NCBI GenBank assembly: GCA_013115125.1
Contig: JABANN010000241.1
Location: 1 to 48,323 of the forward strand
Source of the DNA: Perkinsus olseni
Lineage: Eukaryota
Direction of reading: 5' to 3'
Length of the DNA: 48,323 nucleotides
Shown here one piece after another: positions 129-41,945 of this stretch (positions are counted from its first letter, which is position 1; every line of letters starts with the position of its first letter). The position numbers were made by a program, and so were the translations under genes. The notes under the pieces were generated by a model, which saw nothing but the letters and a program-made list of their open reading frames with translations, did no database searches and had not been told where the DNA came from.

Positions 129-2868
129 TCACTGGAGCCAGAGTTGACACGACAAATACCCGCGGGAATATCTCGGCCGAATAAAATCATCACGATGCCA
201 AGCAATAGAAAAGATAGTCGGGAAAATCGATTAACAGTTGACTTACGTCGCTCCCGCCAAGGCACCGGCGAGGCATCCGTTGGCTCGAGTGTCGCCGCCG
301 CAGCTGATGGCCCAGCTCAGAATCAGATGCATCTCTAGAAATACAGTCGGTGAGAATTGAACCCGGGACCTTTCCATGAAACGACAACACTCTTACCGTT
401 TTGACCAAGCGTTGGGCTGGCGTTAGCGGTCTCTTCATAGAACTCTTGAGCAAGATCAATCCTATTGCTTGCGTTGAGGATGTTAGGAGAGAACGTAGAC
501 GGATCCAAAGACACTCCGCCCATTTCAGTAGTCCTGAAGAATCCATCTCATAATTTCGTGGCGCGCGAGAACCAATTCACCGACGCTCTTCACCACAATT
601 CGACACCATAAATACAGTAATTGTGTTCAAGAGTATGGACGCTCATCTTGCTATCTTGCTCTCTCTCTTATTTTCTCAACTCGCTGTCATAGCCAATTTC
701 TACCATCTCAAGTAGTATACACCCTTCGTCAAAGTCCACAGTATTTTGCGTTCTACAAGTACATCTCAGCGTCCCCCCTCTCTCGAGACAATTGCCTGGC
801 TCAATCGAAGATCTCGCTCGCCCGAAAATTCCGAAAGATATGCCACAATTTTCATCAGCACCCGAGACAGGTTACCCGACAACACATCAGAGAGGGGAAT
901 CTTACTCGTCTTTGCCGTGAACCTCTTCCCCAACCTCAGCTTGCTTAATGGAGAAGGCGACCACTGGCAGGGTCGTGCTGGCCATGGCGCTTTGACCGAT
1001 CTACAGAGAAAAAATGTCGCGCGCCACGAAATTATTGTGGACCTACCCTGGCGGCTAGTCGCTTCTGTTCGTTCATAGAAATCTCATCGTAGTTTGCAGG
1101 AGTCGCCAACTGGAGGGCAGATGCCGTGCTGAGAGGAAAGATACTCAATAGGTCGAAGAGAGGTTGTGACGGAAGGAAAGATACTCAATAGGTCGAAGCG
1201 AGGTTGTGACGAGAGGAAAGATACTCAATAGGTCCAAGCGAGGTTGCAACGAAAGAAAAGATACTCAATAGATCGAAGCGAGGTTGTAACGAGGGGAAAG
1301 ATACTCGATATGTCGAACCGAGGTTGTGACGAGAGGAAAGATACTCAACAGGTCGAACCGAGGTTGTGACGAGAGGAAAGATACTCAATAGGTTGAAGCG
1401 AGGTTGTGACGAGGGGAAAAATACTCAATAAGTTGAAGCGAGATAAATAAAAATAAAAAGATATTCGATACCCACCCTCCCTTACGCAATATCCTTGATC
1501 CCAGTCGGATCGAATACTCCGCTTCTCAATGCGCCCCTCGCAGAATCTGTCAACATCTTCGCCTTCCCCTTCGCAACCTCATGAACAGGTACGGCGTCCG
1601 CCAACTGAACAGACAACAGCGTCGCGCTCGCAACGCTCGAAAAAAATATCTTCATCTCATTCACGCACAATTCGGAAAAGAGAAAATTTACATGAAAAAA
1701 CGAAGTGAACGTTTCTCGGTCGTCGGACAAAGCTGCGCCAGTGACGTGAAGAGCGCTCGAAAAAAACAATTTCCATACCACAATTTTCTCGCAAGGGACG
1801 GGGGAAAGAACAGGAAGCGGGTCCTCTCCACTAACAAGTGGCTTCGCGAAAAAAGTCAGTTTAGAATATTTTTTTCAAGCAGAAAATGCACAAAAAACCT
1901 AATGTGTCAAACTGCGCACAGCGAAGATTCTACCTACCATCTGAAAGATTCTCTCATACTCGCTATCCGGGAATAGCGCAGCTGGCAAACTCCTGATCAT
2001 CACGGTATTACCGCGAAGGGTGCTGGACTTGGGAGCCTCGCCAGAAAGGACCTGGGCCGAAATCGATCGCGCGATCGATTATGGTATCATATTACCGAGC
2101 TCAAACCAGCTCCCCATTTCAAGTGATTCATGTCGGGGTCGTTTATCAAATCTACAAAAGTCCGTCGAAGAGTCGCGCTATCTCCTCCATCGAGCGCGTT
2201 CTTGGTCGCTTCTAGCATCTAAGGTCGACCCATGCAAGATACAAAAAAGGTTGACCCTATTACCATATAGCCGTTGCACGAGAGCCTGAACAACCATTTA
2301 CCCGGCGAGAGCTTCGCCAGCGACGGCGCCAGAGCTCGGTAGGAAATCGATTCGGCCACTTCAACCATCGGTAGCGCATCAACCCCAACATCATTGAACC
2401 TATTCCGTGACAGTCACGAGTCAACCTCAAGATACGCGAGTAATCACATCAGTAGTTGTACTCATTTGAAAAAGATAGAAAATTTTCCGGAAAATGGGGA
2501 GCGAACCTTAACAAGGACGCAAGTGCGCTCTCCGCATCATTTACTCCGAAAAAGAGATGAATCCAGCATCCCGAAATCACCTCAAAAAACCCCAGTATAT
2601 TCATACTCTCTACAGTCTAAAAATTACGCTTCAACATGCAAAGGGTCAAAGCTCTTTGAAAAATATAAAATAGATTTCCGCGCTTCCCCGACACGGTCGA
2701 ATGGTATCTTCGGGTCGAGCTTGTAAGATACAAGATAGGTCAAGATACTCACCTCGTGCCAAAACAATCTCCAATGATGCCGCCCAGAAGCATCCCTCTA
2801 ATCCTTGACTGCAGCACGCTCAAGTTAGCACTCATAAGAGGAAGGCTCTTGCCAACTGCCGACGACAT
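129..2868 (-). CDS. ADP-ribosylglycohydrolase (ARH/DraG family)-like protein, multi-exon
   Basis: The first exon encodes MSSAVGKSLPLMSANLSVLQSRIRGMLLGGIIGDCFGTR (family N-terminal RxRGxLLGxxxGDxxG motif). The penultimate exon (334-247) encodes EMHLILSWAISCGGDTRANGCLAGALAGAT (GGDTD..AGALAGA motif). GT-AG introns include 335-396. Internal exons are only partly resolved. Confidence 0.75.
1131..1442. repeat. Intronic minisatellite, 40-bp unit, about 7.8 copies
   Basis: Unit GAGAGGAAAGATACTCAATAGGTCGAAGCGAGGTTGTGAC starts at 1131, 1171, 1211 ... 1411, with no unique spacers. Confidence 0.95.
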
Positions 2869-3042
2869 CCGGAAAATAGTAGGAAAAACAGATGAGGAAC
2901 TGCAGCAATGTACATTGAGGAAATGCAAGATGCGCCAAGAATGCAAGATCCCAACTCAAGTCCTGGTTGACGTAAGCTCTACTTCGTAGAGAGACCGATA
3001 TATGATTGTTAGAGCAACAGCACTATTTGGTGGAACAAACAG

Positions 3043-39970: not shown

Positions 39971-39994
39971 AGCTGAGCTGCTTTGTATCTTTCC

Positions 39995-41945
39995 ATGGTC
40001 GACCTCAGATTCTCTCCTGAATCGTCGTGTTCCGATAATAGTCGGTACCGCGGTCAGCCGGACCAAGCTCTGTTGTTGGGCGACTCTAGCTACCTCTTGG
40101 AGAGTGATCAAATGGCGCAGCGAGAGGCGATGGATGTGATGGTAAGTTGGGTGGCGTCCCGCACAGGTTCGACCCCTGGTCGAGGGCATTTAGAGAGTAC
40201 ATATTGTTTGCCGACCCACCAATGGAAGTACGAGGAAGCGCCCTTTGGAACATTTGGAAGTTTGTGCTTGCCTCGACCGCTCACTGGTCTGCTCAAAGTC
40301 CATTCATATCGTTGGTTGGTGACGGCGGAGCGAAGCGTTGCACGTATTTGTTTTTGGCAGGCCGGTGAAGCTCATGAGGAGTCTGAATGGTCGGATATTC
40401 GACCCAGGGATGTAACAGAAAATTTTTCAAGATTGGTCACTCTGGGTGAGTCGTGGGCAGCTACTTAATTTCGTGGCGCGCGGTAATTTCTGTCTTTCTT
40501 CAGCCACTGGCGGCTTGACCTCCTCCGAGGGATCGGGTGCGAATCACCAAGCTCCTCCGGTAGGTCCGGCTTTTGGCTTCGCCGCAACTCGGCAAGACTC
40601 TATTTTAGGCCACCAACGGAGCTTTCCTGTCATCAGAGCCAGTGCCAAGTACGTATGGGAAAATTGGAGCACCCTCGGATCGAACCAGGGTCGATTGTTG
40701 TTGCCCCTTCAGGGTGCCCAGCGTCACAAAGATTGACGACGGAGGAGATTTCTGGAGATCTCCTTGGCCAGGAAAGCGGGGTGAACTCAAAGTCGCCCAG
40801 AGAGGTGAGGGTCGCTTTAAGGGCGATTTCAGCGGTCCCATCCGCAGGTTGCCATGGTGGCCCCAGCGGGTTGTCATCGAACTTTGACGATTGGGATGAG
40901 ACCACAGGTGGTGGACCTCGACGATCTACTCAATCTGCGAGAAGATCGGACGACATTGATGATAAAAAGAGTTCCCCGAAAGTAGCGAATGTATGGCCGA
41001 ATGGTTTCTGGTGCTTGCTATCGCCGCACAGGTGGTGAGTTCGATCCCTGGTCGGACTGTTTCGTACGTTTAGGTATTCTTTGGCGCTCCTTCGAGAGGA
41101 GATTGCATCATTTCCGGGGTTGAATGACAGCTACGATTTGTTGTAGGAAAAACATCGGTCCTTGGGTTCGATCCGGGGACCTTTCGAATGACAGATATTT
41201 ACCAGCTGACGCGTCGAAGGATGCTAACAGAGGGTATGCATTCATCAATTTGAAATCGGTGAGCCATGTCTATCTCTTCACAAGCATGCTACAAGTGAGT
41301 CCTTCCTCCTCTGAAGCCTCTTCTCGGGGATTACCTTCGCTGCTCCTGCTCTTCAGAATCACGAGTGGCGGCACTACAATGCTCCACGCAGGACTTGCCA
41401 GCTTTGCTTTGCTCATATCCAGGGTCGGGAAGATACTCTTCAGCATCTCACCCAAGAACGTACCCAAGGGTTCCGCGCTCTTTGCTGCTCTTCCTTTCCC
41501 CCGCGGCGGAGACGATTGCGATATAGTACTGTCGTTGCCTTTAGCTCAGCTTGAAGTTTCTCAGTCGACGGGATATTTCTGTCGTTAATTTTTCTATAAT
41601 TTGATCAAATGTTACTGAAAAATTTAATTTTTTCGATTTTCGTCGAGTGCATCGTCGGTCAGGTCATCCCCTATACATGCTTCAGCAGCGAAGGCGCCAC
41701 CTCGATGCGGCGCCAGAGCTGAATTTATTGTATGTGGCCGCGAGTTCGATCCCCGGTGAAAGCATTTCTTCCTCTTTTGTTCTAGACCAGTCAGCCCGCA
41801 AGAGGTCTGGGGCGTAGGAGATTATCAAATGCCGAACGAAGGTGATTCCATGCTTCGTTAAGAAATTGTAAGAGGGTCTAAGATTGCAAGATTGCCCCCA
41901 TTACTCAGATATTCTACAGCTCGGTAGCAGCACCAGTATGCCGTA
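39995..41945 (+). CDS. Mei2-like RNA-binding protein (C-terminal RRM3 / RRM_2), multi-exon
   Basis: Spliced reading DRTTLMIKRVPRK|YSLALLREEIASFPGLNDSYDLL|YLPADASKDANRGYAFINLKSVSHVYLFTSMLQ|NHEWRHYNAPRRTCQLCFAHIQGREDTLQHL matches the Mei2 RRM3 signature. Both gene ends are approximate. Confidence 0.82.
40987..41062 (+). pseudogene. Degenerate tRNA-like relic (A box and B box) inside the intron that splits the Mei2 RRM
   Basis: TGGCCGAATGG at 40994 (position 8), AGTTCGATCC at 41038 (position 52) and TTT after position 73. Stems are lost. Confidence 0.5.

Follow-up and report, generated by a model that had tools for sequence, protein, structure and literature searches.

A recurrent 18–19-bp DNA word, biased towards introns in Perkinsus olseni, as a putative protein-recognition site

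Insulator and architectural sites such as those of CTCF, the CENP-B box and the extra-TFIIIC B-boxes are 15–20 bp long, occur in thousands of copies, often within genes, and are used in both orientations. The sites of the yeast general regulatory factors Abf1, Reb1 and Rap1 are long, bipartite and rich in information, and are also read in either orientation (excerpts of PMC5291244), and an E2F-type motif is abundant upstream of genes in Cryptosporidium (PMC4117751, in part). Introners, described in Amoebophrya, Micromonas and Aureococcus, are repeated sequences in short introns of unrelated genes that carry terminal inverted repeats and 3–5-nt direct repeats at their junctions (PMC7789003, in part). 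Here we describe a motif of 18–19 nt, BAATTTYGYGGCGC(R)GYGR, in a 48,323-nt contig of Perkinsus olseni (JABANN010000241.1, C1560 in our numbering; the whole contig is the window hereafter) and across the 39.9-Mb genome. The motif is real and very likely functional. We believe that it probably marks the recognition site of one sequence-specific protein binding double-stranded DNA, likely kept by purifying selection, and that this putative reader is probably a general factor of chromatin or transcription competence along gene bodies.

We counted exact words genome-wide using the reversed motif as the control. The 16-mer seen initially occurs 452 times (224 forward and 228 reverse; control 0), and its 12-mer core occurs 1,099 times (control 1); in the initial 646 kb sampled, this core ranked first among 12-mers that recur with distinct flanks. 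The full motif is longer than the 16-mer and bipartite, with the right half following the left directly or after one extra purine (a 0/1-nt spacer). There are 842 short-spacer sites (control 0) and 304 +1-spacer sites; because the two patterns cannot overlap, the genome holds 1,146 sites. We then described the motif in a main sample of 23 contigs (1.24 Mb), picked for carrying motif copies, and in a held-out sample of four long contigs (600 kb). The left edge is sharp, with A at position −1 avoided (3 of 122 copies; 0 of 23 held-out). The main sample contains 96 exact 14-mers; the change C6T was found 15 times and G7A, in the same CpG, twice (P = 0.002), and the other CpGs of the motif were near-invariant (C11T 0, G12A 0 and C13T 1); the held-out spectrum agreed (C6T 6 and G7A 0). 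CpG is not depleted (observed/expected 0.87–1.09) and methyl-cytosine decay therefore fails to explain C6T, a cause that this ratio and the spectrum together rule out. Left-half variants pair freely with every right-half class. The motif is not palindromic and contains approximately 30 bits of information, partly fixed by the seed pattern. It has the high information, sharp edges and freedom of orientation that characterize the site of a general regulatory or architectural factor.

A search of the window allowing up to three mismatches returned 8 matches, spread over 4 genes, where chance predicts a mean of 0.42 and 0 of 100 shuffles reached 8; the initial annotation had rightly judged the number of copies to be beyond chance. 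The exact 16-mers that it had located (starting at 552(+), 1018(−), 5840(+), 8463(+) and 40467(+)) and its one-mismatch copies (4306(−) and 5938(−)) were all found in place. Its site at 3886–3898 is real but not partial, as it forms part of a complete +1-spacer copy at 3880–3899. It had also judged every copy to lie, apparently, in a GT-AG intron, which RNA contigs prove for at least four of the eight by bridging introns 534–905, 1001–1046, 3293–3914 and 4002–4359 (all GT-AG, minus strand); the remaining four lie in introns drawn from the gene model only, at 5764–5981 (two copies), 8443–9041 and 40446–40503. Between 8.5 and 40 kb the window has no copy. The copies and the two RNA-supported host genes are:

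551..568, plus strand: short-spacer copy of the motif, antisense to gene 1, in the 372-nt RNA-proven intron 534–905 and close to its 3′ end
1017..1034, minus strand: motif copy, sense to gene 1, within the 46-nt RNA-proven intron 1001–1046
3880..3899, minus strand: motif copy, +1-spacer form, in gene 2, near the 5′ end of the 622-nt RNA-proven intron 3293–3914
4305..4322, minus strand: motif copy with the tolerated C6-to-T change, in gene 2, near the 5′ end of the 358-nt RNA-proven intron 4002–4359
5839..5856, plus strand: motif copy, antisense to gene 3, in the predicted 218-nt intron 5764–5981 (gene model only)
5937..5954, minus strand: motif copy, sense to gene 3, carrying the tolerated T8-to-C change, in the same predicted intron 5764–5981 (gene model only)
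8462..8479, plus strand: motif copy, antisense to gene 3, in the predicted intron 8443–9041 and close to its 3′ end (gene model only)
40466..40483, plus strand: motif copy, sense, in the predicted 58-nt intron 40446–40503 of a plus-strand gene (gene model only)
243..2901, minus strand: host gene 1, 9 exons, spliced leader at 2901, open frame of 338 amino acids
3018..5245, minus strand: host gene 2, 8 exons, spliced leader at 5245

Locations outside the window were classified with a self-training gene finder written for this analysis and run with the motif masked. Of the 15 RNA introns it finds 14, a score that is not independent because the same introns seeded its training; its classes were also correct for five RNA-supported copies on contig C715, which with the four in the window make at least nine RNA-proven intronic copies. 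In the main sample, 97 of the 122 exact cores were intronic, 8 were in coding exons and 17 elsewhere (introns and coding exons make up 27% and 37% of bases, respectively). The 37 held-out sites divided into 19 intronic (introns being 21% of bases), 7 coding and 11 other. The motif is thus intron-biased and not intron-specific, because predicted coding exons and the regions upstream of genes have sites as well. Short introns that carry the motif usually contain one copy, 3–44 nt from the donor and in either orientation. The density of sites in short introns falls as the gene has fewer long introns (25 of 365, 15 of 546 and 8 of 532 introns by class; held-out 3 of 84, 3 of 240 and 2 of 435), and long-intron genes tend to neighbour each other (rho 0.39). 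Sites were five-fold rarer in gene-poor blocks (11 in 302 kb) than in multi-exon genes (160 in 845 kb). A boundary role beside such blocks was rejected, as sites per intron did not change with distance (0.058, 0.056 and 0.059).

Intronic copies were 83 sense to 33 antisense, so that 28% are antisense, and both classes have the same full motif. Both strands are used, as had been proposed, although within genes the ratio is not 1:1. Intron base composition itself predicts sense-to-antisense ratios of 2.35–2.85 for the 16-mer and 2.8–4.6 for the 12-mer, and against a compositional share of 0.72 we found no further strand bias (P = 0.92); the held-out ratio was 11:8. This fits an origin of sites by point mutation and their retention on either strand, and selection against antisense copies fits too. 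RNA folding at 80 sites revealed no structure (mean z −0.05 and +0.44). Together with the coding copies described below, these results support the earlier suggestion of recognition at the level of DNA rather than a splicing signal.

Purifying selection on the core positions is likely, with support from tandem duplicates and synonymous-codon bias, both small in number. Tandem arrays were located by the similarity of their flanks and not by the motif, which gave five arrays on three contigs; an earlier search (8 pairs) was mostly confounded and was replaced. Mismatches between duplicates numbered 3 of 90 at core positions, 7 of 27 at tolerant positions and 51 of 248 in flanks. A stricter hand tally, leaving out an array with motif copies in its flanks and one double-counted linker, gave 1 of 70 in the core and 33 of 166 in flanks. 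Predicted coding exons contain 13 sites, compared with a mean of 0.35 in 60 synonymous shuffles. Some of these sites probably lie in missed introns and we therefore tested separately the interior parts of exons at least 250 nt long, which contain 6 sites versus 0.08 by synonymous shuffle (held-out, 4 versus 0.02). The peptide APRN was encoded by the codons of the motif in 6 of 6 cases (0.02 expected), and RHEI and ATKL in 0 of 3 and 0 of 7. An intronless gene for an 899-amino-acid protein carries two copies, both ungapped in the alignment to a Perkinsus chesapeaki protein, and its L/S swap (in another P. olseni protein) and R/Q swap (in P. chesapeaki) match the C6/T6 toggle, as judged from proteins only. 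A protein from another contig was 95–97% identical to P. olseni proteins and 70% identical to a P. chesapeaki protein. In a strain comparison over 761 nt with five copies, made from the divergent DNA runs X8 and X9, no listed difference fell in the invariant core and about 20 fell in intron flanks; because contigs from other motif loci pile up on the cores, a 30% share filter hid some differences (totals per piece are higher than the listed numbers), and we do not count this comparison towards selection. Three other exonic sites were considered: the copy at C3:43545 probably lies in a missed 48-nt intron, no homologue of the C948 motif exon was found, and a nucleotidyltransferase exon on C3 has only half a site, altered in one of two homologues.

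That the motif is a selected DNA site bound by protein appears quite likely from these patterns; that its role is general chromatin organization rather than a stage-specific regulon has slightly less than an even chance. The general role is favoured by the even spread along gene bodies, by the grouping of sites in neighbourhoods and by host genes that share no theme. Point mutation would create sites where they now stand, whichever their orientation, and they would then be retained. Tiny introns would host most of them, being the non-coding DNA that costs least in a genome dense with introns, and long exons would gain their sites through silent codon positions. The protein may read the double-stranded site as two halves with a 0/1-base spacer and, as a guess, may position or exclude nucleosomes in the manner of yeast Abf1, Reb1 and Rap1 or of an insulator protein.

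Several observations weigh against this reading. Binding and the chromatin role are proposals made from sequence only, and six family searches (E2F_TDP, KilA-N, HTH_Tnp_Tc5, BAF1_ABF1, CG-1 and WRKY) provided no candidate reader. The histogram of motif spacings has no clear nucleosome-scale period. The intron bias is weaker in the held-out contigs (19 of 37 sites, against 21% of bases), and the location classes come from a self-trained gene finder that was scored on its own seed introns. The tandem test comprises five arrays in three contigs, and 3 of its 12 pairs were dropped afterwards as array edges. The first sample had 14 'coding' sites, but an in-frame intron is plausible for 2 of them and several are near exon ends; one of the six long-exon sites is still suspect. 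Finally, one P. olseni protein reads PQDS where the 899-amino-acid gene has its second coding site, a change that would disrupt the site, and the comparison between species used proteins only.

A conventional transcription-factor site (E2F/DP-like, ApiAP2 or other) that marks a co-regulated gene set from introns and promoters is an unlikely alternative. The genome encodes AP2 domains (6 matches on two contigs, C2868 and C2281), and the AP2s of perkinsids cluster with those of apicomplexans (PMC4117751, in part). Upstream regions of Perkinsus marinus act as promoters, one of them bidirectional (bioRxiv 10.1101/2021.06.11.447996, in part). Copies outside genes tend to lie upstream of a gene (11 versus 3, P = 0.057; held-out 4 versus 2), and in the first sample sites were present in 4 of 19 divergent and 4 of 128 tandem intergenic gaps. 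However, the divergent-gap excess was not replicated in the held-out contigs (0 of 6), first introns are not favoured (10 of 208, as for last introns), no functional theme among host genes was apparent by eye, and approximately 30 bits exceed what a single AP2 domain usually reads. The initial annotation's tentative comparison of the core with an E2F-type site was not supported: the motif shares a T-run followed by GGCGCG, but TTTSSCGC is contained in only 12 of the 144 sites used for motif comparisons, and the motif is intragenic whereas the Cryptosporidium E2F motif is upstream (PMC4117751, in part).

Our Pfam scans, of the genome and of the window genes, were run exon by exon and are insensitive; in such searches E2F_TDP (PF02319) and BAF1_ABF1 (PF04684) gave no match, with no control genome positive for either, and neither did KilA-N, HTH_Tnp_Tc5, CG-1 and WRKY. 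The AP2-domain genes on C2868 and C2281 have tandem domains, with a duplicated locus on C2281, and are possible readers. Among known sites, the yeast SCB (CRCGAAA, bound by KilA-N/APSES proteins) is contained on the reverse strand in 123 of 144 sites but covers 7 of 18 positions, and the common C6T variant destroys it. The Abf1 consensus (RTCRYnnnnnACGR) is found exactly, on the reverse strand, in 43 of 144 sites. The motif is nonetheless not an Abf1 site, because its five 'spacer' bases are fixed and most sites (101 of 144) misfit; it also requires the AATT extension, and in contrast to the sites of yeast general regulatory factors it is found mainly within genes, not at promoters. The resemblance to CTCF sites, the CENP-B box and extra-TFIIIC B-boxes is one of length, copy number, intragenic position and orientation.

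We give still less weight to a recent, unselected relic of a mobile or copy-and-patch process, be it an introner, the end of a miniature inverted-repeat transposable element (MITE) or a short word with which breaks were patched from a high-copy template. Introners exist in a related lineage (Amoebophrya; PMC7789003, in part), long introns hold tandem arrays with the motif inside the unit, and some right-hand tails recur. The introner and MITE tests fail because flanks are unrelated and junction repeats are not in excess. Flanks were unrelated among the 30 loci listed, as reported initially, and among 122 copies the longest shared extension was 8 nt upstream and 14 nt downstream, well short of an element. 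Junction repeats averaged 2.0 nt in 55 motif introns versus 2.18 nt in 1,616 others, with repeats of at least 6 nt in 0 of 55. There are no terminal inverted repeats at fixed intron ends; unlike an introner, the motif is internal, free in position and also present in predicted exons. Its decay is position-specific and not even, the core is kept in diverged tandem units, coding copies are ungapped relative to P. chesapeaki, and orientation tracks local composition instead of being 1:1. No Rfam family coincided with a copy, as Rfam and ARAGORN together gave one tRNA-Arg far from any of them, and the accessible text of PMC3706591 on the Dada transposon has no such motif at the transposon ends. 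Metagenomic occurrences of an 18-mer were set aside as chance, since none of 120 loci had a second copy or either of two other Perkinsus words.

A role in chromosome mechanics, be it at replication origins, in meiotic recombination or pairing, or in loading condensin, is improbable; comparable sites would be those of PRDM9, the pairing or MEX motifs of Caenorhabditis elegans and the CENP-B box. The motif is long, high in information, free in orientation and regionally clustered (C715 has 19 exact cores in 50 kb, C659 has 3 in 137 kb), and the gene classes that contain it also contain orphan B-box words; against this, it is five-fold rarer in gene-poor blocks, and none of the 144 sites match the CENP-B box. 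An RNA-level element, a splicing enhancer or the site of an RNA-binding protein in pre-mRNA, would account for the 83:33 sense bias and for the closeness of copies to exons in 150–450-nt introns (28 of 37 lie at most 50 nt from an exon edge, against an expected 13.4), but is the least probable of these explanations given antisense copies with the full motif, a bias equal to compositional expectation and 11:8 in held-out contigs, no palindrome or folding, and copies upstream of genes and in an intronless gene.

RNA contigs join gene 1 and gene 2 to a spliced leader at the acceptor sites 2901 and 5245, and the leader is of the Perkinsus type (PMC9399869, in part). The intergenic space between the two genes is minimal, because the stop codon of gene 2 is about 120 nt from the leader site of gene 1. 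We take gene 1 to be ADP-ribosylglycohydrolase-like and gene 2 to be SAM-methyltransferase-like, labels for which the single-exon Pfam scan had no match; no paralogues of either were found, the matches being short intron repeats only. Long introns at 1131–1442, 3267–3521 and 4059–4223 are filled by tandem arrays with units of 40, 68 and 55 nt, the first two containing AAGATAC-type words. A 24-kb block at 11400–35400 has no GC skew, no motif copies and a few intronless genes (DUF6740 at 26064–27503), with one tRNA-Arg (28751–28825), and separates two skewed, intron-rich gene arrays of opposite orientation. Long near-perfect palindromes with a one-base spacer at 17904–17954, 17969–18033, 20421–20473 and 32396–32446 are possibly transposon excision scars. 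Two nested inverted-repeat pairs about 0.9 kb apart (45604–46719), within an MCM-binding-protein-like gene, look like a small intronic DNA transposon.

Elsewhere, 26 motif sites are found within 24 kb of predicted related membrane-protein genes (C715:6634–30780), several in tandem arrays. Four tandem copies with 24-nt spacing occupy a divergent intergenic gap at C837:26453–26545, and three further divergent gaps each carry the same extended variant. RNA contigs from other loci contain the motif, one of them 1,863 nt long at depth 59; exonic or untranslated copies would have this effect. Across the gene classes of the 23 contigs, the larger the share of long introns, the higher the GC skew of the sense strand (from −0.015 to 0.104 in short introns and from 0.041 to 0.111 in coding DNA), a pattern suggestive of two regimes of mutation or transcription.

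Short introns share a set of recurrent words with the motif at its head; the set includes GCGGAGCGAAGC, a B-box word and ACCTAAGATA, orphan B-box words being the third most enriched. Perkinsus introns are mostly shorter than 100 nt (PMC3101222, in part), and 22 recurrent words touch 508 of 1,671 predicted short introns, the weaker words including simple repeats. Between 335 and 5150 in the window, 13 of 15 RNA-proven introns match one of nine recurrent words by loose patterns, and the 335–396 intron holds a B-box-like word that the loose pattern missed. The lexicon is enriched in long-intron genes. Orphan words resembling the tRNA T-arm or B-box occur in both orientations in the window (336–367, 5665–5696, 6673–6704, 8996–9027, 9576–9607, 31977–32008, 40659–40690 and 43143–43174). 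A broader reading, which we hold as tentative and rather doubtful, is that Perkinsus chromatin is organized by a lexicon of long gene-internal DNA words, with the motif as the chief word, tiny introns as docking slots and a putative reader that fixes codons and steers amino acids.

As far as covered by titles, the beginnings of abstracts and an exact-letter search, the Perkinsus literature showed no description of the motif, and a mention in genome papers or supplements is possible. What directs transcription and chromatin in dinoflagellates and related lineages has long been an open question, and no genome-wide cis-element for Perkinsus was found in the literature searched. For Perkinsus, a shellfish parasite and sister lineage of the dinoflagellates, a defined 18–19-bp site with about 1,150 copies, measured tolerance and copies in predicted coding exons provides a handle for finding its reader. 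It gives a possible function to many 45–55-nt introns, and the same approach offers a test of whether other intron words are selected sites or inserted repeats. If the lexicon reading were true, many relic-like intron words would belong to a regulatory code of gene bodies, older than the loss of nucleosomal packaging in dinoflagellates.

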